DNA from: an uncultured virus (IMG/VR IMGVR_UViG_3300019132_000039)
Taxonomy: Duplodnaviria; Heunggongvirae; Uroviricota; Caudoviricetes
DNA: 64,000 bases
IMG/VR virus record: IMGVR_UViG_3300019132_000039
Strand: one strand, 5' to 3'
Numbering within the stretch: the first letter of the stretch is position 1; the number at the start of each line of letters is the position of its first letter. The position numbers and the translations under genes were made by a program. Below are positions 2,878 to 46,746 of this stretch, piece by piece. The notes under the pieces were generated by a model that was not told the origin of the DNA, made no database searches, and saw nothing but the letters and a program-made list of their open reading frames with translations.

Positions 2878-2900
2878 CCCTCCGGGGTGTTTGGTGAAAA
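2878..2900 (+). promoter_or_regulatory. CCCTCCGGG-N8-BGRAAA element, copy 1
   Basis: ccctccggg gtgtttgg tgaaaa, 21 nt before ATG 2922. Confidence 0.75.
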
Positions 2901-2921
2901 TATAGTAAAGGAGCAGTAAGA

Positions 2922-3338
2922 ATGACATCAACAAAATCTATTACACTTTTTGATTTACTTTCAGATCATTTTCCAAACGGACAAAAAGCACGGGTCACAA
3001 CAGATAACAGTTTGTATGGCATGACGGTTGCAAAAGTTGATGACATGATTGTGAATTGTCGTACTGGAGAGCCGATTGTGCTTATAAAAGATTTATTAAA
3101 CACTAGAGTTCAACTCATTGAAGCGCAAAAAGAAGTATCACTTCAGGAGTTTTTAACTGCTTATAAAGAAGGTAAAAAAGTCAAAGTGCAAGTTGGCGAG
3201 TTTTACCGCATTTTACAAAAAAACGAGGATATTTCATTTGTATCGCAAGACAATCCATTTATGGCGATTCTGATGTCCCCTGATAATGTGATGACCATGA
3301 AAGAATTAATTGAAGGCACATTTTATGTTTTAGAATAA
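2922..3338 (+). CDS. Hypothetical protein
   Basis: 138-aa ORF with AAGGAG RBS. Confidence 0.7.
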   Translation: MTSTKSITLFDLLSDHFPNGQKARVTTDNSLYGMTVAKVDDMIVNCRTGEPIVLIKDLLNTRVQLIEAQKEVSLQEFLTAYKEGKKVKVQVGEFYRILQKNEDISFVSQDNPFMAILMSPDNVMTMKELIEGTFYVLE

Positions 3339-3345
3339 CCTTCCC

Positions 3346-3368
3346 CCCTCCGGGGAATTTCGTGGAAA
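3346..3368 (+). promoter_or_regulatory. CCCTCCGGG-N8-BGRAAA element, copy 2
   Basis: ccctccggg gaatttcg tggaaa upstream of the helicase gene. Confidence 0.75.
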
Positions 3369-3402
3369 TATAGGTGGTGATCTCATGTAAGGAGGATTTA
3401 AA

Positions 3403-4575
3403 ATGACAGTATCTTCAATTATATTAACTCCGATGCAACAAGAAGCTGTTAATCGGATTGTACATTGGTATAAACATAGTTCAAAAGATACATTTTTTCT
3501 CGCAGGATATGCCGGAACCGGGAAGTCTACATTAGTCAATTATGTGATTGAACAATTAGGTTTACGATTGAATCGAGTAGCATTTGCTTGCTATACCGGA
3601 AAGGCAGCTCTGGTGCTTACACAAAAAGCCGATGGCCGCTATCGTGCCCAAACCATTCACCGATTAATTTACAAATTGGATGTCGATACAAAAGGGAAGC
3701 CACAATTTGTTAAAAAAGAAAAAGAAGAACTTGCTCATATCAAGCTCATTGTGATCGATGAGGCTTCGATGGTGGATGGACAGATTATGGAAGATTTGCG
3801 TTCATTTGGTAAAAAGATTTTGTTTATCGGAGATCAGGGGCAACTCCCACCGGTTTCTCAAGCGGGCAATGAAGAATTTGTTCAAATGTTTCATAATCCC
3901 GATTTTGCATTAACGGAGATTCACCGACAAGCTGAAGGGAACCCCATTATTCATTTATCCATGCTGGCTCGCACCAAGAAAAAGATTGATTATGGATGGT
4001 ACGGCAAGGAAGTGTTGGTCATTAATCAGCGAGACTGGCTGGCAATTCGAGAAAAGGTGTATACGACGGCCGATCAAATTATTTGTGGTTATAATCGCAC
4101 ACGTCAGTCTTTAAATCAGGACATTCGTCGATATTTGGGTTTTACGGATGATCTTCCACAAGTGGGAGATAAATTGATTTGCACCCGAAACAATTGGGGC
4201 AAAAACATACATGAGATCAGCTTAGTCAATGGTATGACGGGATTTGTAAAAGAAGTGAAAGAACTTGAAAAGAATTATGAAATTACCCGTGATGCATTTG
4301 AAATCAAATTCCAACCTGATTTTACAGATGAATGTTTTGAACAATTGTATTTACTTGAAGATCATTTCAAAGGAAATAAGTATCAATTGCTTCCGTATGA
4401 GTACAATGTTTATTGTGAATTTGATTTTGGATATGTGATTACTTGCCATAAATCGCAAGGCTCCCAGTGGGAAAAAGTAGTGGTTATTAATGAAGTACTA
4501 AGTGTCGAGGAACATCATCGCTGGTTATATACAGCCATTACTCGCTCTAGTGATAAATTGGTATTAGTTTTATAA
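3403..4575 (+). CDS. RecD/Dda-like SF1B DNA helicase
   Basis: Walker A GYAGTGKS, IVIDEASMV, GDQGQLPPV, TEIHRQ, TCHKSQGSQW, YTAITR motifs. Confidence 0.9.
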   Translation: MTVSSIILTPMQQEAVNRIVHWYKHSSKDTFFLAGYAGTGKSTLVNYVIEQLGLRLNRVAFACYTGKAALVLTQKADGRYRAQTIHRLIYKLDVDTKGKPQFVKKEKEELAHIKLIVIDEASMVDGQIMEDLRSFGKKILFIGDQGQLPPVSQAGNEEFVQMFHNPDFALTEIHRQAEGNPIIHLSMLARTKKKIDYGWYGKEVLVINQRDWLAIREKVYTTADQIICGYNRTRQSLNQDIRRYLGFTDDLPQVGDKLICTRNNWGKNIHEISLVNGMTGFVKEVKELEKNYEITRDAFEIKFQPDFTDECFEQLYLLEDHFKGNKYQLLPYEYNVYCEFDFGYVITCHKSQGSQWEKVVVINEVLSVEEHHRWLYTAITRSSDKLVLVL

Positions 4576-4590
4576 AAGGAGGGTTTCTTC

Positions 4591-5022
4591 GTGTACTCAG
4601 AAGTAACTCAACGCTTGCATCAAGAATATCTTAAAATAAAACAGCAATATATCGATAATTTGCGAGAGGATTTTGCTAATCATTTTCCTAAGCTGATTCA
4701 AGAACAATATCAGCCTTATTTTTTGCCGGAAATTTGCTATTTTATGATTCCTGGTGATCATGTCGATTTTATGATTTTTGATGAACATCTTAATCTGATT
4801 AACGAATGCGATCCAAAGAATTATAAACCTATGTATCTGGATGAGGATGGTCGCATTTCTTATGATCTAGTGCCGGATTTTCATAAAGTTGTACATGATT
4901 TTGTGGCACCGTATTATGAGGAATTTGAATATTTTGATCTGTATGATGAAGCTCTTCCGCTATCTGATTTAAAAGAAATAATGGGTGTTGCAGAAACTCA
5001 TGAGAAGGAGAATCAGGAATGA
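4591..5022 (+). CDS. Hypothetical protein
   Basis: 143-aa ORF, AGGAGG RBS, GTG start. Confidence 0.7.
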   Translation: MYSEVTQRLHQEYLKIKQQYIDNLREDFANHFPKLIQEQYQPYFLPEICYFMIPGDHVDFMIFDEHLNLINECDPKNYKPMYLDEDGRISYDLVPDFHKVVHDFVAPYYEEFEYFDLYDEALPLSDLKEIMGVAETHEKENQE

Positions 5023-5230
5023 AGCAAGTACTGATAAAAGCTGCTCTAATGGCTGGAGCAGCTCTTTTACGTCAATTAAGTCGAGATGTCGGAAAAGCTG
5101 CTTATTATTATGGAAAACAACAGTTTAAGAAAGCAAAAAGACAAAAGAATAATGATTAACAAAGACAAACAAGGTTTGTATTTTGAGCCTATGCTCAATT
5201 AAAAAATAAACCAATAAAAAGGAGGCCATA

Positions 5231-5842
5231 ATGATGAGCTATGTGGTTCGACAAGCTGAAAATGAACATTTTATTTTAAAGATTGTACAAGATGATGATG
5301 CTCGGAGTCCACGACAAGATTTTGATAATTTAGGTACCATGGTTTGTTTTCATCATCGATATAACTTAGGTGATTCTCATTCGTATTCGGATCCTCGTCA
5401 TTTCTTAGAGAGTCTAGCTATGGAATTAGCTGAACTTGAAGAAGAAGTATTGGAAGAAATGAGCATGGACGAATTAATGGATACCATTGAGGAGCATGTA
5501 GTTATGTTGCCGCTTTATTTATATGATCACAGCGGGATTACTATGAGAACTTCTCCTTTTTCATGTCCATGGGATAGTGGACAAGTAGGATATATTTATG
5601 TGCCTGTAAAAGATTTAGAAAAAGAGGGTTTGACTCTTCAACAAGCTGAAGATATTTTGGAAGCCGAAGTCAAAACTTATGATCAGTACTTAACTGGAGA
5701 CATTTACGGGTACATTCTTGAAACACATGAAGGAGAACACATTGATAGTTGCTGGGGATTTTATGGGCTTGATCACATATTATCTGAATTGAAAGGTGAA
5801 TTAAGCGAGGAATACCATGATCTAATAGAACAACTTGTATAG
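5231..5842 (+). CDS. Acidic phage/plasmid hypothetical protein
   Basis: 203 aa, strong RBS; DNLGTMVC...LYLYDHSG...WDSGQVG...DSCWGFYG pattern that I recall from mobile-element proteins; function unknown. Confidence 0.65.
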   Translation: MMSYVVRQAENEHFILKIVQDDDARSPRQDFDNLGTMVCFHHRYNLGDSHSYSDPRHFLESLAMELAELEEEVLEEMSMDELMDTIEEHVVMLPLYLYDHSGITMRTSPFSCPWDSGQVGYIYVPVKDLEKEGLTLQQAEDILEAEVKTYDQYLTGDIYGYILETHEGEHIDSCWGFYGLDHILSELKGELSEEYHDLIEQLV

Positions 5843-6177
5843 GTGAATACATGGAATTAGTGCACCAATACATGAGCACCTCTTTGTTTTTTCAATGCTG
5901 CTATGTTATTCAATTATGGAACGAACAAGGAATCAAAGCTACCCCTGAAATTGCTTCTTTTATCGAAAAAGAATGTGGAATCACACGTGATGTATTTAAG
6001 CAACAGATCTATCAAAGCGGATATTTATTTCCTAAAGACAATAATGAAGAAGCATGCAAACTAATTTTAGCTTACATTATTTATTGTATTGATTATCAAT
6101 GCTTTCAAGAGTTAGGGAAAACTTTTTCTTTATTAAAGAAAATATTTTATTGATAGGCATTACAAGTAATATATTGA

Positions 6178-6216
6178 TGTAATGCCTTGCATTTACCCCA
6201 AGTTTTATGATAAACT
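6178..6216 (+). promoter_or_regulatory. SigA-like promoter overlapped by a TGTAATGCATTACA-type operator
   Basis: TGTAATGCCTTGCA 6178-6191 overlaps TTGCAT (6187); TG-a-TAAACT at 6211; inverted half-site AGGCATTACA 6155-6164. Confidence 0.55.
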
Positions 6217-6259
6217 TGGGGAGAAGTGATACAGGGGAATAAAATAAAGGAGTCGAAGC

Positions 6260-6945
6260 ATGAAGAAGAAGACACGTACGATAACTCGCTTAATTCTAGC
6301 AGGAACGACGGTTTCTTCTATTGCTCTAGCCCTTCATTTTTATTCGTTCAAAAGTGACTTAAAACAGGTTCGTAAGTCTCACGAAAAGTTGAGCGAAAAG
6401 TACACAGAAGTGCTTGAAAAAAATGAAGACCTTTTTCAAGAAAATCAACAATTACATCAGGAAATGAAAAAGGTGAATGGTTTATTAGAGCAGTCTGAAA
6501 TGGAAATCGATCGACTAACTAAGGAGACTGAAGACCTCCGGAGAAGATTAGAGGTTTATAGGCAAAAGGTAGCTGAATTAGAAAAAAAGTTCAAAAGCAC
6601 CCCGTAGTTTTCCGTGGTCAACGAGAAGGGGAATGGATTTATTTTCGTTTAACCTTTTATGATAATAACTATCAGTCTACTGGAAAACGTCCAGGCGATC
6701 CGGGCTATGGCATTACTGCGAGTGGGCGACCTACTGAAGAAGGAGTTACAATTGCTGTAGATCCTAATATTATTCCGCTTGGTACGTGGGTGCTTATTAA
6801 ATGGCCGGATGGACGCACTGAAAAGCGTCGAGCAGATGATACAGGTCGCTTGATCAAAGGGTATGATATCGACTATTACGTACCTCATGCTCATGTTTCA
6901 ATGGGGGATGTAATGGTGCAAGTCAAAATTCTGGATAAGAAATAA
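6260..6945 (+). CDS. Membrane-anchored coiled-coil protein joined by a probable -1 frameshift to a 3D (Asp-Asp-Asp) cell-wall domain
   Basis: Frame 0 ends at TAG 6607; A_AAA_AAG at 6583-6589; the -1 frame from 6589 to TAA 6945 encodes GITASG...TIAVDPNIIPLGT...ADDTGRLIKGYDIDYY, a 3D-domain signature. Confidence 0.75.
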
Positions 6946-6959
6946 AAGGAGTTGGAGAC

Positions 6960-7226
6960 ATGGTTGTTTTAGGGGAAAGAGATGATGATTTTTTTGATTT
7001 TCGTGATCAAGTGTTTGGTGAATCGGCCAGAGATAGTATTCCATTTTCGCCCCAAGAAGAGGCGGTTTTAAATCGAGATAGCGAAATTCACACTTCTTAT
7101 ATCTTGGTTAATGCCTTATTAAATTTATTGATTCGAAAAGGTATTATTTATCCTCATGAAGTAAAAGCCCTCGTTGCAGAATTGCATGCAGAATATATAA
7201 AAAAGCGAGGGAAAACCCATGAGTAA
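6960..7226 (+). CDS. Hypothetical protein
   Basis: 88-aa ORF with RBS, overlapping the next gene. Confidence 0.65.
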   Translation: MVVLGERDDDFFDFRDQVFGESARDSIPFSPQEEAVLNRDSEIHTSYILVNALLNLLIRKGIIYPHEVKALVAELHAEYIKKRGKTHE

Positions 7227-7599
7227 ATTAAACATTCAACAAAAGCTGAGTAAATTTAAGAAACATGTTACACATTTTTCAGAACAACTAAAGTATCAAG
7301 TTGTGCAAGAACAGGAAGTGATCGTAGGAGGTACAATTCTGAACATAGTTCCTCCGGTTGACGAAGAATTTCCTATGTATATTGTCATTTTAGATGACTT
7401 AGTGGGTCAAACTCATGTGTTTGTGACAGAAGAAATCATGAACACCTTTATGGATCAATTTCAAATTGGTCAGGATGTATTTATCGAAGGGTTTGTTAAT
7501 ATTATTAGCCGACGTATTCAAGGAAAAGAGAAAAGAGATGTGTCGGTTTTTGCATATGATGTAAAAGATTTTAGGAAGAATGGAGACAACATTTCATGA
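7219..7599 (+). CDS. Stand-alone OB-fold protein resembling the DnaE C-terminal OB domain
   Basis: VGGTI...MYIVILDDLVGQTHVFV...GQDVFIEG resembles the DnaE OB pattern. Confidence 0.5.
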   Translation: MSKLNIQQKLSKFKKHVTHFSEQLKYQVVQEQEVIVGGTILNIVPPVDEEFPMYIVILDDLVGQTHVFVTEEIMNTFMDQFQIGQDVFIEGFVNIISRRIQGKEKRDVSVFAYDVKDFRKNGDNIS

Positions 7600-7777
7600 G
7601 AAATGTGTTAGTTTTCCCAGATAAAAGTGAGCATGATTTTATGTATCCTGTCAACCGAGATATTCATATAGGAGAAAGGTTGCAGGTACAGTTTCAAGAT
7701 CATACTGTTCATGTTTTGGTAGTCACAGATATCAAGAAAACTGACAAAGTGATTTATTATTATTTATCTTTTTCAGC

Positions 7778-7800
7778 CCCTCCGGGACATTAAGTGAAAA
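7778..7800 (+). promoter_or_regulatory. CCCTCCGGG-N8-BGRAAA element, copy 3
   Basis: ccctccggg acattaag tgaaaa upstream of ssb. Confidence 0.75.
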
Positions 7801-7829
7801 ATAATTTTTTATTTTAGGAGGTATATGAC

Positions 7830-8582
7830 ATGAATAACTACGGTCAACCTTATGGAAATCAGTCTTATGGAAATCAGTCTTATGGAAATCAAGGGTACTC
7901 AAATCAAGGGTATCCAAATCAAGGCGGCTATCCGATGGATCAGCAATCTAATGGTCAACGTAATGGCTCTGGATTTGATAATTATGCCAAAATCAAAGTC
8001 ATTGGACGTTTAACCCAGGATCCAACTTCAAAAATAGTAAACAATTCAAAAGTGGGTACATCTAAGATCGCAATTAATCATCGTAGCGAAAAAGCAGGAA
8101 CTGATTTTTGGTTTATTGAAGTATGGGGCAACGAAGGAGCCGATAGTAAATATAATTTCTTGATTAATCATTGTCCGAAAGGTCGTCGAGTGTTCGTAGA
8201 AGGAATCCCTGAACTTCGCCAACAAAAGAATCAAGATGGTTCTTATAGTTATTATCCAACTATTAAAGTTACTGAGCTTGTAGGATTAGAAATGCCAAAA
8301 GGCAGTGAAGGAGCACAACAACAACCAACAGGACAGTATCAAGGTGGATTCCAAGCACCGCCACAAGGTAATTTCAATCCATCTCCACAACAGCAACAGG
8401 GAGGATTTACACCACCTCCGGCTCCACCACAAGGAGGAGGATTCCCGCCAAATCCGGCGCAATCAAATACACCTCCTGCTCCGCAAGGAGGATTTCCACC
8501 TAACCCACCAGGTGGCGGTTATGGAGCTCCAGTAGGTGCACCAAATGGCGGATTTCCGCCAGCCCCACCACAAGGAGCTTAA
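7830..8582 (+). CDS. ssb: Single-stranded DNA-binding protein with low-complexity N- and C-termini
   Basis: IGRLTQDP...TDFWFIEVWG...KGRRVFVEG SSB core; YGNQS repeats at the N-terminus; P/G/Q-rich tail. Confidence 0.85.
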   Translation: MNNYGQPYGNQSYGNQSYGNQGYSNQGYPNQGGYPMDQQSNGQRNGSGFDNYAKIKVIGRLTQDPTSKIVNNSKVGTSKIAINHRSEKAGTDFWFIEVWGNEGADSKYNFLINHCPKGRRVFVEGIPELRQQKNQDGSYSYYPTIKVTELVGLEMPKGSEGAQQQPTGQYQGGFQAPPQGNFNPSPQQQQGGFTPPPAPPQGGGFPPNPAQSNTPPAPQGGFPPNPPGGGYGAPVGAPNGGFPPAPPQGA

Positions 8583-8584
8583 AA

Positions 8585-8608
8585 CAAAGGGGGGATGTTC
8601 CCCCTTTG
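8585..8608 (+). terminator. Hairpin, probable terminator
   Basis: CAAAGGGGG/CCCCCTTTG inverted repeat after ssb. Confidence 0.55.
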
Positions 8609-8656
8609 ATGTATTTCCTATAATACCTCGTCATATTTTGCCGTATATAGAATGGA

Positions 8657-9076
8657 GTGAATCACTTGGCACGCAAAAAGCCTAATCCTGCCAATTCTTT
8701 GGCTCGATTTATGTATGGAATTTTTGATTATTATCATGACCGAGGTATGCCAAAAAAGACAGCCAAGGTACGTATGATTGATAATACACTTGAAGAGTGT
8801 GTCAAAATCATGAAACAAGAAGAAGAAGTTCCTGATCACATGCTTATTGTCATGGCTCAATGGATGTCACGAATTCTTCAATACCGTGGAGCTCATATGA
8901 CTAAACAAATTCGAACAATGCAGCAAAAGGCAAATGCCACACAGCAACCTATAGAAATTGATGAAGCGTATTTACAGCCGCTTCGGGATTTAAAAGCGGC
9001 AAAAGATGCTATTGACCAATTTATTGAGACTTATAAAGGATGGAGTGACATAAATGACCAGAAAGAAGAAAGATGA
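8657..9076 (+). CDS. Hypothetical protein
   Basis: ORF overlapping the recA start. Confidence 0.65.
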   Translation: MNHLARKKPNPANSLARFMYGIFDYYHDRGMPKKTAKVRMIDNTLEECVKIMKQEEEVPDHMLIVMAQWMSRILQYRGAHMTKQIRTMQQKANATQQPIEIDEAYLQPLRDLKAAKDAIDQFIETYKGWSDINDQKEER

Positions 9077-10232
9077 TAAACAAGCAACAAGCACAACTGA
9101 AACTTCATCAACAGGAATGGCTAGTAATGCCGATTTAATTGCCATGATTAATAAGCGAATGGGAGAAGGTTCTATTTATACATTTGAAGGAGAAGAGACT
9201 GTTAAGGTCCAGCCTGTATCTACGGGAATCCCTTCCTTAGATTTCGCTTTAGGAATTGGCGGCCTTCCGTGGGGACGATTGGTAGAAATCTATGGACCAG
9301 AATCCTCTGGAAAAACAACGGTAGCTTTAAAAACGGTTGCTACATTTCAGTATTATGCAAAACAACCGGGTCATCCATTTTACGGCAAAAAAGCGGTTTT
9401 CATTGATGCGGAACATGCCTTAGACCCATTCCATGCAAAAGCTCTTGGAGTGGATATTTCAAAAGAAACAGGTATGCTAATTGCACAACCAAACTGTGGC
9501 GAAGAAGGCTATGACTTAATGGAAACACTGATTCTTTCTAATCAAGTGGGCTTGATTGTTGGTGATAGTTTACCATCATTCATTCCTAAAGCTGTTATTG
9601 ATGGATCTGCAGAAGATAATCATATTGGATTACAAGCTCGCTTAAATTCTAAGTGTTTGCCAAAGATAGCACAATTGGCTTACAAACATAATTGTTTAGT
9701 CATTATGATTAACCAGATTCGAGAAAAAGTCGGCGTAATGTATGGGAATCCAGAGACTACACCGGGTGGCCGTGCATTGAAGTTTTATTCTTCTGTTCGT
9801 TTGGATGTGCGTCGAAAAGAAATCAAAAAAGGAGATGCCTTTATTGGCCAAACGATCACAATTAGTGTGAAAAAGAATAAGGTATCTCGTCCGTTCACTC
9901 AAGCGGAATTTGATTATTATTGGGATACAGGAATTGATGTTATTAAAGATATTATGAATGTAGCTATGGATATGGATATTATTAAACGTGCAGGAGCATG
10001 GTATTACTTAGGAGAAGATGTCAAAAATCCATACAAAGATGCTTCAGGAAATGAACTTAAATGGATGGGGAAAGACACCGTTGAAGCGGTTTTAAAACAA
10101 TCCCCGGCTCTATTTAACTATATTAATGATATTGTACAGGGTCGTATTCCAAAAGATGCTCAATTCGTGGTTGAGCAAGATGATTCTCAAGAAGAACTAG
10201 ACTCAGAATATCATGAAAATACGTTAGTCTAA
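9054..10232 (+). CDS. recA: Recombinase RecA
   Basis: GRLVEIYGPESSGKTT, FIDAEHALDP, INQIREKVGVMYGNPETTPGGRALKFYSSVRL, KNKV. Confidence 0.95.
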   Translation: MTRKKKDDKQATSTTETSSTGMASNADLIAMINKRMGEGSIYTFEGEETVKVQPVSTGIPSLDFALGIGGLPWGRLVEIYGPESSGKTTVALKTVATFQYYAKQPGHPFYGKKAVFIDAEHALDPFHAKALGVDISKETGMLIAQPNCGEEGYDLMETLILSNQVGLIVGDSLPSFIPKAVIDGSAEDNHIGLQARLNSKCLPKIAQLAYKHNCLVIMINQIREKVGVMYGNPETTPGGRALKFYSSVRLDVRRKEIKKGDAFIGQTITISVKKNKVSRPFTQAEFDYYWDTGIDVIKDIMNVAMDMDIIKRAGAWYYLGEDVKNPYKDASGNELKWMGKDTVEAVLKQSPALFNYINDIVQGRIPKDAQFVVEQDDSQEELDSEYHENTLV

Positions 10233-10270
10233 AGGGAGCTTTTTGCTCCCTTATGTGAGGAGGGGTCAAG

Positions 10271-15371: not shown

Positions 15372-16235
15372 ATGCATCGACCTGTTATTTCATTGCGGGA
15401 TCGCATTGCTCAAAATAAATATTTTCATTTTGAGATTATTCAAATTGGCACAGGTGGAAATGGAGGTTACTTATTGCAACGCCTTTCCAAATTATTGTAT
15501 AGCTTATCACAGCAAAATGAATTATTTTCATATCGCTATGTCATTGTAGACGGAGATCAGGTAGAACCGAAAAATGTATACCGTCAGCCTTTTATTGAGC
15601 AAGATATAGGACTTCCTAAAGTAGAAGTGTTAGCCAATCGTTACAGTAATGCATATGGAATCCCGATCCATTATCGGGCTTCTTATATCGAACAGGTAAA
15701 GGAATTGCAGGATTTATTTTCTTATCATCGTTCCCATTTTTATGTGGACATTCCTGTTTTATTGGGGTGTGTGGATAATAATGCTACCCGTCAAATTATG
15801 CATCAACTATTTGAAAAAATGTCAACCATTGTTTATATCGATAGTGGAATTGACTCCGTGAACCCAGAGGAAATTCCTTCGGTTCAGCGGAAGATGGGAT
15901 ACTCCGGTCAAGTTGTATGTGGATTCAAATGGTATTCTCAATTAATTTTGGAACCTGTAGGAATGGTATATCCGGATATTTTAGAAGACACCGATTCTCG
16001 TTTGCCTACGCAAGCATGTGGAGAACAAGTTTTGTATTATCCGCAGCGCATGCAAACCAATGAAACTGCTGCACTTGTAATGATGAGTTATTTGAATATG
16101 CTTTTGTCTGAATCCATGATTATGTCACACTATGTTAATTTCAATGCTCAAACCATGTTAATGCGTCCTATGTATATTGAGGAGCAACAAATGATGAGGT
16201 GGTCTTCAGATGAAAAACAAGCAAAAGCGGTTTGA
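15372..16235 (+). CDS. ThiF/E1-like adenylyltransferase, PRTRC-type
   Basis: IGTGGNGG, VDGDQVEPKNVYRQ, PK, GCVDNNATR, YIDSG, GQV, Cys in QAC. Confidence 0.88.
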   Translation: MHRPVISLRDRIAQNKYFHFEIIQIGTGGNGGYLLQRLSKLLYSLSQQNELFSYRYVIVDGDQVEPKNVYRQPFIEQDIGLPKVEVLANRYSNAYGIPIHYRASYIEQVKELQDLFSYHRSHFYVDIPVLLGCVDNNATRQIMHQLFEKMSTIVYIDSGIDSVNPEEIPSVQRKMGYSGQVVCGFKWYSQLILEPVGMVYPDILEDTDSRLPTQACGEQVLYYPQRMQTNETAALVMMSYLNMLLSESMIMSHYVNFNAQTMLMRPMYIEEQQMMRWSSDEKQAKAV

Positions 16236-17051
16236 TTTTTCTAGATTTATGGAATCTTTACAGTCGGCTAATAATCGTTATTCAGATCAAGAGCGTAAAA
16301 TCAATTATCGCATACTCCGATTGTACCGAGAAATCATGAGGAGGGAAAACATTACAGATGAATTTCTTCAATCTGTTACCCAGGAAGAATTGGAATGGAT
16401 ATTAGATATGGTGATGTATTGGCCTTCCTATGAAGCAGGAGCTTATGACGAGGATTGGGATCATATTGGGGTTCAATCGTTTCAGATTGAAGATATTATT
16501 CAATACTTAGGCCAGATGCCTACCGTAAGAAGGGAGGTTGCATTCTTTTGAGTCTTCTTTATGAAGAAGAACGATACGAAATTGCAGAAACCATTGATGT
16601 TGTCATGATGATGAAATTTCTATATGACCTTGGAGAAGATTATATAACAGATAAACACCAAAGCATTAATGGTGAAGACTTTTTTCTTCGGGCGATCACA
16701 CGATTAGAACATCGTTTTCGTTTTTTCCGAGCAAAAAACGAACCAGATACCCCTCATTGTTATGAAATTGCTTTTCTATTTGATTGGACTATGATACCAG
16801 AAATACTGGTTTCCCAAGTAAAAGAAACCATAAAAAATGCTGTTCAAACTTCAGGTTTATACTACGAAGATTTTGAAGGGGATTGGCAAGAAGACGGATA
16901 TTTTACGATTGAATATTATAGCACCCCTATGTTTTCGAGCTTGTTGTCAAATTTATGGATGGCTTTAAGTCAAATTCAACAGGATATTCAAAAAGCCACA
17001 CAAAACACTCAAGAATCATTATCATCCTCTATGCAGGAGGGATTATTATGA
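16210..17051 (+). other. Two acidic hypothetical ORFs within the PRTRC module (16210-16551, 16548-17051)
   Basis: Translationally coupled between the ThiF and E2-like genes. Confidence 0.6.
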
Positions 17052-17731
17052 AAGCAGTGATTACACTTGATAATCTGGAATTAGCTAAAGTAGAGCTTGA
17101 GGAAAATGGAATACAAAGAACGTTACATCTTACTTTGCAGCAATTAGCAGAACTTTTATTATCTTCATTGGTAGAGGATTACAATGAACCAAAAGAGGAA
17201 CCGGCAAAACCGATTTTAATTAGTCCATCATTGCCTCTAAATACTGTCAAATATGCAAAGAAAAGCGATGAATCCCATTTAGTATTTCTTTCGTATCCGG
17301 AAACAACAGCGACTGTTCAATACCATCAAAGCGTGTTTCAAGACGTTCCGTTTCCTAATTTGGTGTTTTTCTTTGCGGTAAAAAATCAGCGAGTTTCTAA
17401 TCGCCAAGTGTTTGCTTACAAAGACCGTTTTTTACGAGATGATACTAAGCTTTATCGCTATCCGTATTCCAACGTATACGAAAATGGTCGTATGTGCTAT
17501 TACAGTGATGAAACTGTTAAAGATTTAGTTCAGCTACAGACCTTTCCACACCGATGGCTTCATACGCCATTTAATGATCACTTGTATTTTCCGAGACAAG
17601 TAAATTTAACCAGTAAGCCACTTCGACAATTGCTTGAGGAATCACAAGGAAAACCTTTTGATTACAGTATTTTACGTCCTGCCCCTCAGAATTTGACTTT
17701 TCACGAATGGGCAGAGTCAATTATAAATTAG
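17048..17731 (+). CDS. Prokaryotic E2 family D-like protein (PRTRC protein B-like)
   Basis: VPFPNLVF...TKLYRYPYSNVYENGRMC...FN; GGAGG RBS before ATG 17048. Confidence 0.75.
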   Translation: MKAVITLDNLELAKVELEENGIQRTLHLTLQQLAELLLSSLVEDYNEPKEEPAKPILISPSLPLNTVKYAKKSDESHLVFLSYPETTATVQYHQSVFQDVPFPNLVFFFAVKNQRVSNRQVFAYKDRFLRDDTKLYRYPYSNVYENGRMCYYSDETVKDLVQLQTFPHRWLHTPFNDHLYFPRQVNLTSKPLRQLLEESQGKPFDYSILRPAPQNLTFHEWAESIIN

Positions 17732-17753
17732 TAAATCATTAGGAGGTATTACT

Positions 17754-18282: not shown

Positions 18283-19674
18283 ATGCAGATTGTTCAGAAA
18301 CGTCATAAGGAAGTCATTGAAGTGTTTCACAATGATGTGGAAGAAATGCATGAAAATATTCGAAAACTACAAAAAGAAGGATGGTCTGGAAATACTCGTG
18401 TGTCTGTAACAGGCGTACCTCTTTGTATATTGAGCATTCAAGATGTAGAACACTTTCAAAAACAATATCCTCATGTGAAAGTCCATGAGGATAAATCAAT
18501 ATATTACGGAACGTATGTGTATTTTACAATACACGAAAGAGAAATAAAGTAATGCATTACTTAATTAAGGAGGAAATCAAATGGGTCGTTATATTTATTG
18601 CGATGGTGAATACGTATGGAAGTATGTATTTGCACGTCAAAGTAGTGAACAGGGTCGAATTTATGAAGAGCTAGGATTAGGATCTTATAGTTATGATGAT
18701 TATGGTGATTCATTGACATTAACTATGGATGATGTACCGGCGTTAAAAGAATATTTGAAAAGCCGCAATTTTGATCAGTTATTCAAAGAATTTATAGAAC
18801 TTCCACAACAGTATGAAGGTCAGACTTTATACCATGATAGTGAAGGAAATGTAATTGGCGAAGCCATAAGTTTCGGTTCACCATTAGATGAAGCACAAAG
18901 AGAATTTCAACAAACTCATGATTTTTACTTTTTAGAAATGATTGATACAATGGTGCGCTTTATGGAAGAAAGATATGAGTCTTCTGGGCAGATTGAATTT
19001 ATTTTTAATGGTGAATTCTAAAGGAGGTTTTATGATGAGTCAACAAGTAGCTATTCAAGTTTTAAGTGCTCTATCTTCTTATGGGATTCCAATAGATGAT
19101 CAGGAATTATGGGGTGAAATGTTACGTAAAGTGGAAAATATCTTAGAATCTCATTCTTATGAAATTATTTCTAATGATCCAGATACAGTGGCTGTTATCA
19201 GATGGCATCGTGAAGATATTGCCTCTATGTTACAGCAAAATGGAATTGAACCAACAGAATCTCATATTGATGCTGTCAAAAAACGTAGTGATTGGATTAA
19301 AGATAGTTCTGTTCAGACAGGATGGGAAATCATTGACGACATTATTGGTATTTTAAAATCAGAAGGAGCTTTTTCTTCTACCCCTCCGGGGGATTTAGCG
19401 GAAAATCAAGAGGAAAACGAAGAAGAAGGAGTGGAATCAAATGGCTGAGAAAAAACTTCGTGTCGTGTTAGACATCGCTTTACGGTACTACAATTTAAAA
19501 GATGCAGAAGTTCAACCAGAAGACTTAGTGGATAAATTAACAGTTCATGGTGACATAGTTTGTGACGGTGTGGTCATTAGCCGGGATATTGTGAATGGTT
19601 ATGATCACACGGATGAATTTTTCTTTGATGAAGACAATACTTATATTGTTTCTACTGAAATCATTGAATCTTAA
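18283..19674 (+). other. Hypothetical ORFs (18283-18552, 18581-19021, 19032-19448, 19441-19674)
   Basis: Packed ORFs with strong RBS; operator AGTAATGCATTACT at 18548-18561. Confidence 0.6.
19382..19404 (+). promoter_or_regulatory. CCCTCCGGG-N8-BGRAAA element, copy 4 (inside the 3' end of an ORF)
   Basis: ccctccggg ggatttag cggaaa. Confidence 0.7.
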
Positions 19675-23342: not shown

Positions 23343-23365
23343 CCCTCCGGGACATTTATCGGAAA
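23343..23365 (+). promoter_or_regulatory. CCCTCCGGG-N8-BGRAAA element, copy 5
   Basis: ccctccggg acatttat cggaaa. Confidence 0.75.
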
Positions 23366-34694: not shown

Positions 34695-34717
34695 CCCTCC
34701 GGGGCATTTGGGGAAAA
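34695..34717 (+). promoter_or_regulatory. CCCTCCGGG-N8-BGRAAA element, copy 6
   Basis: ccctccggg gcatttgg ggaaaa upstream of the primase gene. Confidence 0.75.
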
Positions 34718-34740: not shown

Positions 34741-36114
34741 GTGCCAAAGTACCCAGATGACTTTAAGGAGTATCTTAAATCGATTGCACCTGTACATGAA
34801 GTCATCAATACCATTATTGGTGGGGTAAAATCATCTGGCATTAACTATGTCGCTCATTGTCCATTTCATGATGATGATCGGCCTAGTTTGATGATTAAAC
34901 CTGAAACCAATACGTGGTCATGTAATGGGTGTGGTGCGGGAAGTGCAACCCATAGCCGTGCTACATCTTCGGATGTGTACGGCTTTATTAAAGGGTATTT
35001 TAACTGCAATTTAGGTCAAGCTATCGAATGGTTGGCCAAATATCTCAATGTACCCCTTCCCGCTCTTGACCCACAGCAGCAATATCGTTTAAATCAACAT
35101 CAATGGTGGGTAGAAAAATGTCTTCGTGCTCAACAACGATTTCAACAGAATTTGCTTCAACACCCGGATGCCTATAAGTATCTTCGAAACCGTGGCATTG
35201 AAGATTTAGACATTCACATTTGGGGATTAGGTTTCGGTGATGGAGAAGACCAAGAATTTTTAAATACCAAAGGGAAAATCACGTTTCCGATTCATGACTA
35301 TTATGGAGATATTATTTCATTTACGGGACGTGTGCCGTTTGGTGCTACTGCCTTAGCGGAGTTAAATGAAAAACAAAAAGCAGAAGGAAAACGAATCACT
35401 CCTAAGTATGATCATCGATGGCCATTAACAGAAAAATACGTCAATAAAGAATATCTTCGAAATCATCCCTATCCCGAGTTCGATCGAAATTATTATTTGT
35501 ATGGTATCTACCAAGCCAAAAGCTACATTTCTCAATGGAAAAGAGCTACTCTTGTTGAAGGCTTTACCGATGTTATTCAGCTTCATCGACATGGTATTCG
35601 TAATGCCGTTTCTACCATGGGAATCAATTTAAGTGAACAGCATGTGCAACTTTTAAAACGAGCTGGAGCTATGCATGTATTACTTATGAGAGATGGAGAT
35701 GATGCTGGATTACGGGCTATGGAAAAAGATGCCCTAATTTTAATGAAACATGGATTATCTGTTCAAGTATGCCCGCTTCCTGATGGACATGATCCAGACA
35801 CACTTTGTCGCACATATGGCTTATTAGACGATGCTCTTTCCAAATGCATTCAAAAGAGAACTCGCACATTAACTCAATGGCGAGTAGAAAAAGTTTACCG
35901 AGAACAGCAAGATGAAATCCTATATCATTATGCCCGTATTGGAGAAATTCAAGGAGATCGCATAGAAAGAGTCGTTAAATTATTGGCTGAAGAACAAGAT
36001 CCGATTCAACTGGATATCTTAACAAGACAATATGCAGAGCTTTTTGTAATGTCTTACGAATCTCTAAGAGATAAAGTAGCCTATTACAAACAAAAGGGGG
36101 ATACTCATGTCTAA
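34741..36114 (+). CDS. dnaG: DnaG-type DNA primase
   Basis: CPFHDD...CNGCG zinc finger, FPIHD, FTGR, PKY, VEGFTDV, DGDDAG, DPD; GTG start after AGGAGG. Confidence 0.92.
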   Translation: MPKYPDDFKEYLKSIAPVHEVINTIIGGVKSSGINYVAHCPFHDDDRPSLMIKPETNTWSCNGCGAGSATHSRATSSDVYGFIKGYFNCNLGQAIEWLAKYLNVPLPALDPQQQYRLNQHQWWVEKCLRAQQRFQQNLLQHPDAYKYLRNRGIEDLDIHIWGLGFGDGEDQEFLNTKGKITFPIHDYYGDIISFTGRVPFGATALAELNEKQKAEGKRITPKYDHRWPLTEKYVNKEYLRNHPYPEFDRNYYLYGIYQAKSYISQWKRATLVEGFTDVIQLHRHGIRNAVSTMGINLSEQHVQLLKRAGAMHVLLMRDGDDAGLRAMEKDALILMKHGLSVQVCPLPDGHDPDTLCRTYGLLDDALSKCIQKRTRTLTQWRVEKVYREQQDEILYHYARIGEIQGDRIERVVKLLAEEQDPIQLDILTRQYAELFVMSYESLRDKVAYYKQKGDTHV

Positions 36115-39807: not shown

Positions 39808-40018
39808 GTGATTACATGTACCGTCAAATTAAAATTGAAACCAATAAAACATATGGTAACTGGGATTGGACAAAAGATGGGCAATACCCAACACCACGAG
39901 TAAAAGGGAAAGATAAGCGTCGCCGTAATAAACATCAACGAAATATTGAAAAACGATGGATAAGAAATGAAATCAAAATATGGGAAGCCTAAAAAATACA
40001 AACAAAGAGGTGAAAGAA

Positions 40019-43000
40019 ATGCCACGCCTTTATATGCCGGAAATATATACATTAGAAATGTATAACCGTCATTCTTCAAGCGGCATAGCCTATTGTGATC
40101 TACTTGTGACAGATAGCGATAATGTCATCTATTTAGCCAATTTGATTGGTGTGGATTCCAAAGTAAAGCAAGCCGCATGGCTTATGCAAGATGGAAAAAC
40201 GGGACAAATTTATCGTGCTGAAGGAAATCGATACGAAACAGGATTTATTCGTCATAGTGTTTTTGCTATTCCTACGTCTAAAAAGCCGTATGATGAAGAG
40301 GTATTAAAAGTTGATGATTTAACTCATATTTTGATGGTGGCCAAAAATGCAAAACCAGATTTAAAAGCACGTAATCAATGGTTAGCAGAACAAAGAGAAC
40401 GAATCAATCAAGGTCTAGATCCAGAATCTATTCCAAGCCATTTAGCTGAACTCATTTTGGCATGGGATGGTAATTACAAAAAACAAGTGTTTCATGTTCT
40501 GAATGACCGATATAATACACCAATGCTAGAGGAATGGACTGATTATATTGTCGAACGACTAGAAGAGGAAGGTTATTATACACCTCTTACCGTGAAGTGT
40601 TTTGGTTCCAATTATTCTCTAGAAGCAGGACTTCTTATGATTACAGAAGAACAGCTAGAAAACATTATCTCAGAAGGAGTTCAAGGATATGAGTTAAACT
40701 TTGCAATTGAAGAAGATGGCCGAGATGAAAGTCAATCCATATTACCTCATTGTCAGACGATTGATGATTATTTAACTCACTTTGCACCAGAGCTAGGAAA
40801 ACGTATCCAAGAGAATATTGCTGTTCGTTTTGATCCGGAGAAAGAACGACATCATCCCGCTTTTCGTGATGTGAATTTATGTGCCAATCAGCAAGGAATT
40901 ACAGGTCTATATCCACCGCAAGCCAATACTGTTATGGGTGTTTCTAAAACATTGGTGGAAGATGATTTTTGTTTTATCGTTGGAGAAATGGGTTAACAAA
41001 CAGGTCGTAATGCATTTCATAGCATGTTATTATGGGTATAGGAAATATACCTATGGGAGTGATAACATGTATGAAATGGCAAAGCAAATGTTTTTGGAAG
41101 GTAAATCGTTGAGAAAGATTTCAGAGCTCACAGGTTTTGACCGCAAGAAATTATCCCAAATGTTAAAAGCAGATGGGATACAGATAAAATCCAGAGGGAT
41201 GACAACAGGAAGAAGTAAATACAATCACAACACCGATGCGTTTAAAGTAATCGATACCGAGGAAAAAGCATATTGGTTAGGCTTCTTATATGCCGATGGC
41301 TCAGTTTATGAACCACGGGGAACATTGGAACTAAGCTTATCTGAAAAAGATGTTAATCATCTTGAGCGATTTCGAGATTTTATCTCTCCTGAAATGGACA
41401 TCAAACCAAGAAACGTGAATGGTCATCTATGCTATCGATTACAACTCGTATCGATGGAAATTGTACAGGATTTAATTGATAAAGGCTGTACGCCTGCCAA
41501 ATCATTGACCTTGCAATTCCCAACAGAAGAGCAAGTGCCACATCATTTATTGCATCATTTTATGAGAGGATATTTCGATGGAGATGGAAGCATTCATTAC
41601 TTCTATGATCCGAGAGATAATTCCAGACCTCAAGTGAATATAGAAGTGATTGGTACAAAAGAATTCCTAGATGCTTATTCCAAAGTTCTACATGAACACG
41701 GATTGCCACTAAGAGAAAAATACAAAGAGAATGGAAGAGCATTTGGTTATCGATTCGGTGGAAATGGATTGTATGCGAAATTTGTAAATTTCCTCTACAA
41801 CAATGCAACGATTTATCTGGAACGAAAACATTATCCTGTAGCCCATGTAAAATCGGGTGAATTGCTGGAAACCTAAGTCCGAAAGGATATGGCAATCAGC
41901 AGCCAAGCCTAGCGAATGGCACTTGAGTAGCTAGGAAGGTTCAACGACTAACGGGTGAGGATGCCGACCAATAAACCCGACACGAGCGCCCGACACGATG
42001 AAGGCTGTCTCCGAGCCTGAGTGATGATATAGTCTCGTCCTCTCCGAAAGGGGAGTGGTTGGGTTAAATTCCCGACCTAGAAGGTATCGACAGGTAAAAC
42101 CACAATGGGTGAAGTAGTTCCATACATCACAGAAGCAATGCTGCAAAACGTAGAAACCAATCCTCAACCACAGCGGGTTATTGTCCTGTGTCCTTCCATT
42201 ATGGTAGAAAAATGGGCACGGGAAATTAAAGAACGAATACCGAATGTAGAAACACATATTATTCAACATTGGTTAGACGTAAAACGAATCCAGGAACAAA
42301 ACCAATACATGGATGCAAAAGGAAAAATAAAATACAAGAAACCGGAGAAATGGGAATATTACATCATGAGCTCTGAGTTGTCCAAGTTTACTTATCCGAT
42401 GGAGCCTATCAAAGATTGGCGTGTTCATAAATCTGATATTACATTCCGTTCTGTAGAGGACGTAGAACCTGAACAAATTCGACATGTTCGACGAGGAGAT
42501 GGCATGCATCAAGTTGTTCATCCTGAGTATCGTGTTCGCATGATTCGAAACGAAGTCTGGAATTATGAGAGCGGAAGACCTGATGTGTTTTATTCGGTAG
42601 GCGAAACCAGTTTTTATTGTCCAAAGTGTGGGAATCCATTATTCGAACGTGGCGGTGAATATGCAGAAGAACATTTCTTTGAAACTTACAACAAGTCATC
42701 AAAGAACTGGGTAAAGAATATGACCAAAGAAAATTATCGCTGCCGAAACAAAGTTCCAACTTCTCTTTTACCAAAAGAGGAAATTAAGGAATGGAAGTTG
42801 GATTACAATAGTAATCGTTGGGTGCCGGCAGATGAGGAACAAGAATGCGGATATGTATTATGGCAGCCAGAAAAACTTCCACTGGATTCTGGATATCGAA
42901 AAGTATCTCCAGCTTGGTATATCAATAAGAAATTACCAAGAGGATTCTTTAAATACCTAATTGCTGATGAAGTTCATGAGTACAAAAGTGGAGATTCTAC

Positions 43001-44531
43001 AACAGGTACTGCATTTGGCCAATTAGTGAACCATACTGAAAAACAAATTTTGCTAACGGGGACATTAATGGGTGGAATGGCTCGAGATATTTTTTATTTA
43101 CTAGCTCGCTTAAATCCAAAAGGACTTCTTCGGGAAGGCATTACGTATCAAGATGAATCACTCTTTAATCGTCGATATGGAATTAATGAGCGAAGTACTC
43201 GTGCACGAGATGGTCGCATTCGTCGTACGACTTCACAAAAACCAGGTATTTCACCACATTTATTCCCGATGCATCTGATGAATAATTGTGCCTTCTTAGA
43301 ACTAAATGACATGGGATATGCATTACCGCCATATCGAGAAATCCCGGTAGTGGTAGATATGAGTTCTGAACACCATGATGCTTATCGACAAATTGCACAT
43401 GATGTCGCCGTAACCATGCGTTCAACAGAAGGGTTAGGTGGCATGAATAGTATTTCTACCTTTATCAATGCCATGTATCAGTATGCGGATACACCATTTA
43501 ATGTAGAAGAAATTGTCACATATGATAAAGATGGACATCGTCATATTCTTGGAGTTCCTCGTACTTTTGATCCAGTAAATTTTGTGCCAAGAAAAGTAGA
43601 ACAATTGATCCGCATTATTGATGATGAAATTTATCAGCATGGTCGCAAGAATCTGATTTATGTCAAATACACCGGAAAAGAAGCATGGAATCAAGTGGAT
43701 ATTTACTTGTATGAAGAATTCAAACGTCGAGGTTATAATGTAGGAATTCTTCGAAATGGTGGAAGCTATGACGGGATTCGAATGCCAAAGAATTCTCAAC
43801 AACGGGAACAATGGCTTCATGGAATGATGGAGAAACACGATTGGGACATTCTTATTACCAATCCACGATTGGTGAAAGTTGGATTAGATTTACTTGCTTT
43901 TCCAAATATCCACTTTTTCCAATTGGATTATTCCACATATGATTACATGCAGGCCTCTCGTCGTTCATGGCGACTCAAACAAACGAAAGATGTAAAAGTA
44001 TACACCTATGTGTATCGTGATACGATTCAAGAGAAAGCTCTCAAACATATTGCTCGCAAAATTGATGCAGCTATGGCTATGCAAGGAAAATTCTCTGAAG
44101 AAGGATTGCGTGCCATGGCAGATAGTTCTGACGGCATGAATGCATTAGCCAAACAGCTCCTTAATGATAATGTCTTTGAAGATATTGAAACGGTACATGA
44201 TATCTTTGCCCGCAAAAATCAGTCCTTTGAGGAAATGCAAGCTGTGGAGTTTCAGGATTATGAAGGTTATATCATGAATCCAATTGAAGGCGGTATTGAT
44301 ACAGTACGTAAGATTGCTCAAGGATTGATTCGCTTTGTAGAAGAAGAAGCAAAGGTCGGTCGTGCAACAAAAGAAGATGTTCGTCGGACTCGTAAAGCCA
44401 TTGACGATTATTTATCCATGTTTGATTCTGTCATCAAGAAAGTAGAAAACGTTAGAGAATACAATAAGGGTGTACCAAAGCGGAAGCAAGTTATTGAGGG
44501 GCAACAGGAGCTAGACCTCTTTGCTTTATAA
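40019..44531 (+). CDS. Large SF2/SNF2-like helicase, spliced (exons 40019-40993 and 42090-44531, about 1138 aa)
   Basis: The join restores Walker A GEMG-TGKT; IADEVHE, LTGTLMGG, VGLDL, QASRRSWR. Confidence 0.88.
40994..42089 (+). ncRNA. Group I intron (1096 nt) with a homing endonuclease gene in the P1 loop
   Basis: U|...G boundaries; IGS GCCCAU 41841 pairs with AUGGGU; P10 CCUGU/ACAGG; P AAUUGCUGGAAA, Q AAUCAGCAGCC, R UCAACGACUA, S GAUAUAGUC. Confidence 0.95.
41067..41876 (+). CDS. LAGLIDADG homing endonuclease with N-terminal HTH
   Basis: AYWLGFLYADG and HFMRGYFDGDG motifs; GGAGTG RBS before ATG 41067. Confidence 0.9.
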   Translation: MYEMAKQMFLEGKSLRKISELTGFDRKKLSQMLKADGIQIKSRGMTTGRSKYNHNTDAFKVIDTEEKAYWLGFLYADGSVYEPRGTLELSLSEKDVNHLERFRDFISPEMDIKPRNVNGHLCYRLQLVSMEIVQDLIDKGCTPAKSLTLQFPTEEQVPHHLLHHFMRGYFDGDGSIHYFYDPRDNSRPQVNIEVIGTKEFLDAYSKVLHEHGLPLREKYKENGRAFGYRFGGNGLYAKFVNFLYNNATIYLERKHYPVAHVKSGELLET

Positions 44532-44597
44532 GAGGTCGCTCCTTCTATTTGAAGTAGGCAATAGGAAACAGAAATGGAATAAATGGTAAGGAGGATT

Positions 44598-46669
44598 ATG
44601 ATGAAATACTGTTCAAAATACCGTTGCGGTCGTGTATTACCAGAAAACTTTGAAGGAACAGAATGTCTGTATTGCGGAGCCAGTGATAAATATGCCTACC
44701 TGGACTCACATCGTTACATTAATTCACTGCCGTTAGAAGCTTTTGAAATTGAACAAAAATGCAGAAAATGCGGTTCTACCGAGGAATTATGTTATCATGA
44801 AAAACATGATTATGGTTCTTTTCAAACAGGGAATTATTATGAATGCCGTTCCTGTCGAGATGCCTTTTACGCTGAGATGGATCGAGAGGAAGCGATGCAC
44901 TATATTGTCATCAATAATTATAGTGATGAGATAGAGTTTTATGCAGACAAACATGAATTGGAACAAGAGTTAGACGAAATTTCAAGTGATTGGGACTATG
45001 AAAATCTAGAAAATATTGATGAACACCTCATCATTTTAAAAGTGGAAAAAATCGAAGGGTATCCAGAGCTACGTGATTTCCAAAATCGCAATGTTTTTTA
45101 TTACAATGATGTATTTTATCGAGTGGAAGAAGTTATTCAGCCATATTTTGAGAGTGATAGCAGCTGTACCATCAACTGGTGATTCGAAAGGAAGGAAAGT
45201 ATGATTGATTCAACCATTCAAGAAATCAAACAACACCCAAAATACATTGTATTAAAAACAGAAGATGTAGAGAAATACGGTTGGGAAACACAGAAGATGT
45301 ATTTACGTGATTTATGCGAGGAAATCAACAAAGGTCGCATAGAAGAAGGAAAAAAACTGAATAGCTATATTGTAATTAACATGGATGAGCCTTATATCAA
45401 TGAAGTCATTGAAATATTAAAACGTCATGGACATTGGGAGGGATAATCATGACTACACAAATTATTCGTCATGACCGAGGATTAGATGCAAAACGTATTG
45501 AGAAACTGATTGATATGATTGAGGGTAAAATCAATGATATTCTCTATGACCGACGAGATGTATTAGCACAGCGAAAGGAAGAGCTCAAACAAGAGTTTAT
45601 TGTTCAAAATAATTTGCAGCCTCATTTTAATGCCATTAAAGATATTGACCAACAAATCAGGGAATTAGAAAAACAAATCAGACATCTTGAAAATCAAAAA
45701 GAACCTCATAAAATCGCTATTTCTAAACTCTTTAGAGGCTGTGAAGATACTTTTCAATATCAGAGAATATCTGAAGGTTCACCGGCTGATGAATACATTA
45801 AATCCCGAATTTTTCAATATCAGAGAATATCTGAAGGTTCACCGGCTGATGAATACATTAAATCCCGAATTTTAAATATTGATGAGATAAAAAATGAACT
45901 AAAACAGCTAAAAGAAGAAATGGAAGAAAAATTGTGGTTGGCTAAAGATATTGATGAAGCTCGTTCTCTTTATTATTATGCAACTAGCCGGATTCAAGAG
46001 CTTACGGGAGGGATATAAATTATGCTGAGGAAGTGTTTCGGGAAGTAGTTCTTTGTGATGATCTTGATCAAATCGAAGAACTCCCCAATGGTATTTACTA
46101 TCTTTTATTTGAAACAGGTTGTTACACATATTCCACCCCAGAAGGAACCGAAGGTGATGTAGACACAGATTTAAAAGTGTATCCTTTTGTTCCTTTGCGG
46201 GAATTTTTAAAGCATAAAAAACAGTTGTTGGAGAAACCTGAACCAGAAGCAGAAGAATTATTCGATTTATATCTCTACATACAACAAACTAAGCCACACT
46301 CCATCCAACACGATGATGATGATTTAGATTCATGGGAATAGGAATATACATTAAAACCGTAAATATGAAAATCATGAAGGGTGTGAGATGGCTATTATGA
46401 AGCAAATTTATGAATGTTTAACTCGAGCTTTTGAAGGTAAACTTCCCCTTCCGAGTAAAAAATGGAAGGGGATTATTACTACGAATTGTGAAGGACATGA
46501 CATTTTAGCATTATACTGCAGTTACAATTTGATTCTCCTTTATGACATTACTTCCCATGAGTATATATACGAATGGACAAAAAGAGGATGTCATTTCCGA
46601 GGATTACAAAGCGCAAAAGAGTGGTTAGAAGAACGCAAGAGAAAACAGCAAGAAATCTCTTGCAAATAG
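44598..46669 (+). other. Hypothetical ORFs (44598-45182 Zn-finger, 45201-45446, 45449-46018, 46033-46341, 46388-46669)
   Basis: Packed ORFs with RBS. Confidence 0.6.
45751..45870 (+). repeat. Perfect in-frame 60-bp tandem duplication
   Basis: 45751-45810 = 45811-45870 (FQYQRISEGSPADEYIKSRI x2). Confidence 0.95.
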
Positions 46670-46707
46670 CATCAGATGTTGTAAGATCATGTTTATTCTG
46701 TTATTAT

Positions 46708-46746
46708 TGTAATGTATTACAAACCCTCCGGGTTATTGGGTGAAAA
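46708..46746 (+). promoter_or_regulatory. Operator TGTAATGTATTACA adjacent to CCCTCCGGG element copy 7
   Basis: Operator 46708-46721; ccctccggg ttattggg tgaaaa 46724-46746. Confidence 0.8.

Follow-up and report, generated by a model that had tools for sequence, protein, structure and literature searches.

The window considered here is a stretch of 64,000 nucleotides from an uncultured virus (IMG/VR IMGVR_UViG_3300019132_000039). Its source, a complete virus record of 215,870 bases with direct terminal repeats (G000; coordinates marked C1 refer to this record, plain ones to the window), carries 15 copies of a short hairpin element. We believe, with a probability of about 0.65, that these hairpins serve as middle promoters and that a YonO-like single-chain RNA polymerase (P0001), encoded in the same genome, recognises them in the template strand as DNA hairpins. 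The copy number, strand, placement, stem covariation and loop chemistry of the element, the family and fold of the polymerase, and the co-occurrence of the two in relatives are observed, and from them we infer the promoter function, the start site, extrusion in vivo and the identity of the reading polymerase. Relatives with the same one-protein polymerase also have hairpins; therefore, the hairpins are probably promoters of that enzyme.

The hairpin element and the genes it leads

The first-pass annotation of the window described seven copies of CCCTCCGGG, all on the plus strand, followed at fixed spacing by RTT and BGRAAA and ending about 20-37 nt before a start codon. This description is accurate: the seven copies are present on the plus strand only (the mean in shuffled sequences is 0.07, and 0/100 shuffles reach seven), RTT at positions 12-14 and BGRAAA at positions 18-23 are kept in 7/7, and the 23-mers end 21, 34, 29, 36, 23, 23 and 29 nt before the start codons (i.e., 21-36 nt). 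Allowing one mismatch in CCCTCCGGG gave no extra copies. A motif scan of the whole replicon found 15 sites, nine CCC-TCC-GGG and six GCC-TCC-GGC; six of the eight copies outside the window are GCCTCCGGC. All 15 are on one strand, that of the polymerase gene, within an arc of about 60 kb spanning the contig join, and none is in the structural arm. The first site is 997 nt past the stop codon of the polymerase gene; 14/15 end 11-40 nt ahead of a start codon, while the site at C1 13191 leads no clear gene. The consensus is c-SCC-TCC-GGS-RN-RTTT-GG-TGRAAA. A matrix derived from the 15 sites gives them scores of 28.7-38.5, against 11.4 for the best of all other sites, a gap that is partly circular.

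The 9-mer is an inverted repeat with a covarying stem of 3-5 bp (5 bp in eight sites, 4 bp in four, 3 bp in three). The third stem pair is formed in 15/15 (C-G in nine, G-C in six; neither strand has a mixed site), the fourth in 12/15, and the fifth in 10/15, where four kinds of pair occur; pairs 6-8 form no more often than by chance. Overall, 90.7% of the stem cells are paired vs 70.0+/-3.9 in shuffles (0/500 reach the observed value), and pairing drops to 33-56% in slid registers, including the UNCG register. The template-strand loop is C-GGA-G at 15/15 sites, so that all of them follow the rule known for phage N4, a template loop 5'-G(G/A)A-3' with a C:G closing pair. Where N4 has four As on the template and then C at +1, the coding-strand spacer here is RTTT, with T in 15/15, 15/15 and 12/15, followed by G in 10/15. 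A review of mini-hairpin DNA (PMC13037366; this and the other papers are cited from the portions of their text available to us) reports a stable structure for GNA alone among triloops, names GAAA, GABA, GBAA and GTTA as working tetraloops, requires GC-GC or CC-GG stems and describes the RNA counterparts as far weaker. Of the template loops found here and in relatives, GGA, GATA, GACA, GAAA, GTAA and GTTA are among the stable DNA mini-hairpins listed there.

The sites do not resemble intrinsic terminators, having stems of 3-5 bp and at most 3-5 T within 8 nt after the stem. Nor do they resemble a sigma-70-type promoter of two unpaired hexamers 16-18 nt apart, being a contiguous 23-mer with a covarying stem. 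Rfam had no match at the hairpin sites, and the Rfam search gave a group I intron only.

In the window, the candidate hairpin promoters (all on the plus strand) are as follows. The copy at 2878..2900, with a 4-bp stem and a TCC loop (GGA on the template), leads an open reading frame (ORF) of 138 aa at 2922, and that at 3346..3368 (4-bp stem) leads a RecD/PIF1-like helicase (3403-4575). The copy at 7778..7800 (3-bp stem) overlaps the last codons of a 65-aa ORF and leads SSB (7830-8582), then RecA and UDG; that at 19382..19404 (4-bp stem) is within the 3' end of a 138-aa ORF and leads ORFs of 77 aa (19441) and 229 aa (19692). Three copies have 5-bp stems: 23343..23365 (outer pairs T-A and G-C) leads an AAA ATPase (23389-25020), 34695..34717 leads a DnaG-type primase (34741-36114), and 46724..46746 (two A-T outer pairs), the last of the arc, leads DnaN (46776-48104). 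The eight copies outside the window are on the minus strand at C1 13191, 12689, 12194, 10680, 9548, 9151, 8261 and 4545. The region of about 1 kb between the polymerase stop codon and the first motif (C1 13200-14180) holds only doubtful ORFs and may be a non-coding RNA region.

Most of the genes named earlier as lying downstream agree with Pfam (the helicase, SSB, primase, DnaN and the ATPase); the supposed Gam-like gene (19692-20381) has no Pfam or PHROG match. Two copies (19382 and 7778), rather than the single one reported, overlap the ends of upstream ORFs. The term "replication regulon" proves too narrow, as the arc comprises the entire early/middle, non-structural arm; the copies outside the window lead mostly non-replication genes.

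Candidate polymerases and the hairpin sets of relatives

The gene of P0001 (C1 14188-17667, minus strand) encodes 1159 aa. The protein matches Pfam RdRP (E 1e-8) and phrog_8308 (E 3e-12), a family that includes SPbeta YonO; it has an ADCDGD motif, and D661, D663, G664 and D665 are invariant in 12/12 aligned sequences. Its predicted structure (predicted local distance difference test, pLDDT, 78) matches QDE-1 (E 1.5e-16) and RDR2. Judging by sequence and model, P0001 is a single-chain two-barrel polymerase of the YonO/RNAi-polymerase family, predicted to carry out DNA-dependent RNA synthesis. Its orthologue in pSCDB14 is WP_080623693.1. It gave no significant match among PDB sequences and no tblastn match in the phage collection. 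No T7-like polymerase was matched among the 153 scanned proteins (of about 290 predicted in G000), and both polymerase candidates appear two-barrel in their models.

G000 has three candidate readers of the hairpins: P0001, a sigma-like protein and a tail-module ORF. The gene of the sigma-like protein is at C1 139857-140627 (plus strand; Sigma70_r4 E 4e-5, PHROG sigma E 1e-9). The tail-module ORF, 2306 aa from stop to stop (C1 68185-75105, plus strand; L004:11185-18102), has a NADSDGD motif conserved in 7/7 complete relatives scanned. Its model matches beta' chains of RNA polymerase (E about 4e-6); weak matches are the phiKZ polymerase by sequence (E 1.5) and an atlas RdRP cluster (0.91). We take it for a candidate two-barrel polymerase packaged in the virion and fused to the tape-measure region. 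Profiles of the P0001-type and the tail polymerases gave no significant alignment to each other.

The exact pattern of G000 is present in 1/14 related records; the relatives use their own cores. When viral contigs were scanned for the exact pattern, 23 stretches had a single match each, which we treat as chance. In 0305phi8-36, CGTTCGCACG occurs in 19 exact copies on the gp99 strand and in none on the opposite strand. Leaving aside the terminal repeats, 17 exact copies remain; their outer pairs 4-6 are formed in 17/17, 17/17 and 16/17 with varying pair types, and TG is 13 nt past the loop, as in G000. TCC-triloop sites are also present in the B. thuringiensis plasmid pd, where pairs 2, 3 and 5 covary among 11 sites selected with no use of the outer stem. 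One-strand hairpin sets of their own, downstream of the polymerase, were found in 8/10 further records by iterated matrices ignoring the outer stem columns (the seeds were hand-picked, and G004, G008 and G011, which end within 5 kb of the polymerase, were left out). The fraction of sites on the polymerase strand is 10/10 in G001, 18/19 in G002, 7/8 in G006, 9/9 in G007, 9/9 in G009, 8/8 in G010, 4/4 in G012 and 5/6 in G013. The loops in these records are TATC, TGTC, TTTC, TAAC, TTAC and T(N3)C, with ATCC/CTCC in G012 (its site sequences are identical to those of pSCDB14 and were counted once); GC-TAAC-GC sites occur in three pBtic235-like plasmids, whose polymerase is distant.

The primase orthologue is preceded by a hairpin in 9/10 relatives with a tblastn match (at 144279 in 0305phi8-36), G003 being the exception. 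Among the gene-leading hairpins of 13 records, T..C loops account for 49/198 in the 70 kb past the polymerase vs 30/398 elsewhere (pooled p 1.6e-8); counts of plain k-mers or loosely defined hairpins gave much noise where relatives are GC-rich.

Three relatives (MTATph1, KLEB27-3 and WH1) have no YonO-like enzyme by four profiles. This absence rests on two of them, phrog_8308 and a 44-protein profile, which both detect SPbeta YonO, because alignment A1 and PF05183 miss it. Under a single filter, gene-leading hairpins with T..C loops number 60/145 in 14 polymerase-positive records (the discovery genomes included, and five searched over 80 kb only) vs 2/24 in these three (p 0.001); the counts are low in some positive records, namely G003 (0/1), G006 (1/6) and pSCDB14 (0/7). 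All three negative relatives have a homologue of the sigma-like protein, and WH1 and KLEB27-3 match the tail-polymerase profile. 0305phi8-36 has both hairpins and a P0001-type enzyme; it has no homologue of the sigma-like protein, its whole record has no match to the tail-polymerase profile, and its gp145-147 have no DxDGD motif. The co-occurrence pattern, on three controls, points to P0001 as the reader. Relatives, and also phages without a YonO-like enzyme, conserve the sigma-like protein, which is a candidate late sigma factor.

Proposed mechanism and rival explanations

We presume that the host or virion polymerase makes P0001 first, from another promoter class. The element would have three parts: an inverted repeat of 3-5 bp with TCC at its centre, a spacer RTTT, and GG/TG-RAAA as the region of the start. 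The template strand of the repeat would fold into a C-GGA-G DNA mini-hairpin, its extrusion probably being helped by supercoiling and by the enzyme or a cofactor. P0001 would bind the mini-hairpin and start RNA at a fixed distance, at motif positions 16-19, thereby driving the non-structural arm; the start may be position 16 (the N4 geometry, purine in 13/15) or 19 (an invariant G after a pyrimidine in 14/15). The sigma-like protein may serve late genes. A read-through RNA spanning the motif could mask the ribosome-binding sites of SSB, primase and DnaN; we see this as a possible secondary effect and not as the chief function.

Several points weigh against this proposal. Just 8/15 stems reach 5 bp and three have 3 bp, which is short for cruciform extrusion; extrusion in vivo therefore probably needs help. 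The six GCC copies cluster within 5 kb and may not be independent. G000 encodes a second polymerase-like protein, there are only three negative controls, and each of these has 0-1 similar hairpin. In 0305phi8-36, one copy is upstream of the polymerase gene itself. The iterated matrix drifted without convergence for G003 and retained just its two seeds for G005; the enrichment of T..C loops reaches p<0.05 in just 4/13 individual genomes. The loops of pSCDB14 and G012 (GGAT/GGAG on the template) break the G...A rule, and the loop-to-YG spacing differs among phages (13 in G000 and 14 in plasmid pd, against about 16 in G002 and a longer spacing in G006). The seeds and filters for the relatives were set after the data had been seen, and the phages are related to one another. 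Finally, no matching element could be linked to the YonO start mapped in SPbeta.

The main rival keeps the DNA-hairpin promoter and assigns it to the virion-delivered polymerase of the tail module (C1 68185-75105). The conserved NADSDGD motif, the likeness of its model to beta' chains and the precedent of N4, where the reader of the hairpins is a virion enzyme (PMC4496689), speak for it. We nevertheless find it rather unlikely: 0305phi8-36 has hairpins without a match to the profile of this protein, WH1 and KLEB27-3 match the profile yet have no hairpin set, and the sites in G000 and close relatives begin past the YonO-like gene instead of ahead of it. We consider improbable a duplex-DNA site at which a phage sigma factor or a dimeric activator would act with the host RNA polymerase. 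The motif is palindromic, and G000 encodes the sigma-like protein and several helix-turn-helix proteins; however, independent recognition of half-sites would give mixed CCC/GGC sites, of which 0/15 are seen, and the variable outer pairs remain complementary. The first-pass annotation had suggested a promoter for an element-encoded sigma factor or activator. We retain the class, a promoter read by an element-encoded factor, and replace the reader by a single-chain RNA polymerase; a sigma factor is unlikely because 0305phi8-36 has the same architecture without a homologue, while the three sigma-carrying relatives have no hairpin set.

The element could also act as an RNA hairpin in longer transcripts (in processing, stabilisation, antitermination or translational control, or as a weak terminator), which is unlikely, even though covariation alone cannot separate a DNA hairpin from an RNA one and some sites in relatives have T-rich tails. 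The coding-strand loops (UCC, UAUC, UGUC, UAAC and UCGC) are neither GNRA nor UNCG; the UNCG register (a slide by +1) gives 56% pairing and a covariation of 0.061. In this arm, genuine terminators are marked by longer stems and U runs, and the hairpins track the polymerase gene. The particular version proposed earlier, an anti-Shine-Dalgarno sequence sequestering the ribosome-binding site, fares poorly: CCUCC pairs with the downstream ribosome-binding region in 4/14 RNA folds (SSB, primase, DnaN and one more), the stem covaries internally, and the motifs of most relatives have no CCUCC. Single-strand priming signals for a phage primase are very improbable. The G4 and ssiA priming sites do contain mini-hairpins (PMC13037366), and G000 has two primase genes; however, 14/15 copies stand just ahead of ribosome-binding sites, all within one transcription arm.

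We thus prefer the promoter read by the YonO-like enzyme. A broader version, to which we would give even odds, is that two-barrel polymerases of the YonO/RNAi family start sigma-free on extruded template mini-hairpins, convergently with the unrelated N4 enzyme. It would be shared by an entire clade of jumbo phages and phage-plasmids of Bacillota, the loop size and spacer length shifting with each enzyme, in a cascade in which a late sigma factor and a virion polymerase fused to the tail also take part.

Genomic setting and comparison with known systems

G000 belongs to a large soil phage of Bacillus-like bacteria. Its capsid protein shares 84-91% identity with its counterparts on Bacillus and Paenibacillus plasmids of 200-260 kb and 48% with that of phage 0305phi8-36, and a ParM-like actin gene is present. 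These features argue for a jumbo myophage resembling 0305phi8-36 and probably a phage-plasmid. The sequencing runs listed for 2700-9200 of the window are four DNA runs from a single study, with no RNA run among them.

Other features may be mentioned briefly. The window contains a cassette of ThiF, prokaryotic E2-D and ubiquitin-like genes (15372-18227), with a RadC-like JAB gene at C1 8264-8719. An SNF2-like gene is interrupted by a group I intron with a LAGLIDADG ORF (41761-42056 and 41061-41876), and the terminase, tail and DNA polymerase III genes carry further LAGLIDADG/HNH insertions. The UvrD/PcrA helicase (31111-33573) is split into two ORFs about 570 nt apart, and the gap may be an intron. 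The related record G010 begins with a CRISPR array of about 60 repeats (C1 1-4100, L107). A second element, the AT-rich palindrome TGTAATGCATTACA, is found in both arms of G000 and in eight relatives, often near sigmaA-like boxes, and is probably a repressor operator; examples are C1 20415, 34020, 74826, 123353, 140901, 149128, 167717 and 177882, and about 18549, 37948, 41007, 48113 and 61892 in the window.

The literature searched (theses, subscription papers and the primary annotation paper of 0305phi8-36 were outside the search) does not join a YonO-like polymerase to hairpin promoters. [quoted passage not shown] (PMC5467207); G000 offers 15 natural sites, a predicted structure and natural compensatory variants, and related phage-plasmids exist in cultured strains of Bacillus licheniformis and B. 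paralicheniformis. If our proposal is true, the recognition of hairpin promoters arose in both major polymerase folds, and the polymerase with its hairpin would make a compact orthogonal transcription system for Gram-positive bacteria.

The closest known system is that of 0305phi8-36, a related jumbo myophage in which an RdRP-family polymerase heads the non-structural arm and a motif is repeated ahead of genes. Hardies et al. proposed in 2007 that 14 copies of a 21-bp motif are middle promoters for gp99 (PMC2147016); the available text speaks of a hairpin for terminators only and does not call the motif a hairpin or an inverted repeat. The CGTTCGCACG-N8-TGTA motif of our analysis probably corresponds to theirs. 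It differs from the G000 element in its core sequence, TCGC tetraloop and 6-7 bp stem, and gp99 is about 23% identical to P0001 over 511 aa. A jumbo-phage review (PMC7824862) calls gp99 YonO-like and, in the portion available, gives no promoters.

SPbeta YonO resembles P0001 in belonging to the single-chain two-barrel family and in the aspartate triad; it has 839-843 aa and transcribes a late operon from one start (PMC5467207), whereas P0001 is longer (1159 aa) and seems to act on many middle promoters. As a lead only, the primers of that paper were located in SPbeta at L127 20574 and 20358, and a 6-bp hairpin with a TTCC loop, one of 13 weak hairpins, is inside the forward primer with which the YonO start was mapped (L127 20566-20550, minus strand).

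The N4 promoter has a GGA loop on a 5-bp stem (PMC13037366), whose variable bases need only pair (PMC4496689). Our sites resemble N4 P1-P3 in the template-strand hairpin, GGA loop, C:G closing pair, stem of about 5 bp and A-rich template spacer (PMC4496689, PMC13037366); their variable stem bases covary so as to pair, and 8/15 reach 5 bp. The -8 template G of N4, contacted by the specificity loop, has no match, the equivalent base being C in 15/15. Extrusion of the N4 hairpins in vivo depends on supercoiling and SSB. The N4 enzyme is T7-like and virion-packaged and has three promoters, whereas here the candidate enzyme is two-barrel and there are 15 sites. By analogy, our reading is that the element works like an N4 promoter without being a member of the N4 family.

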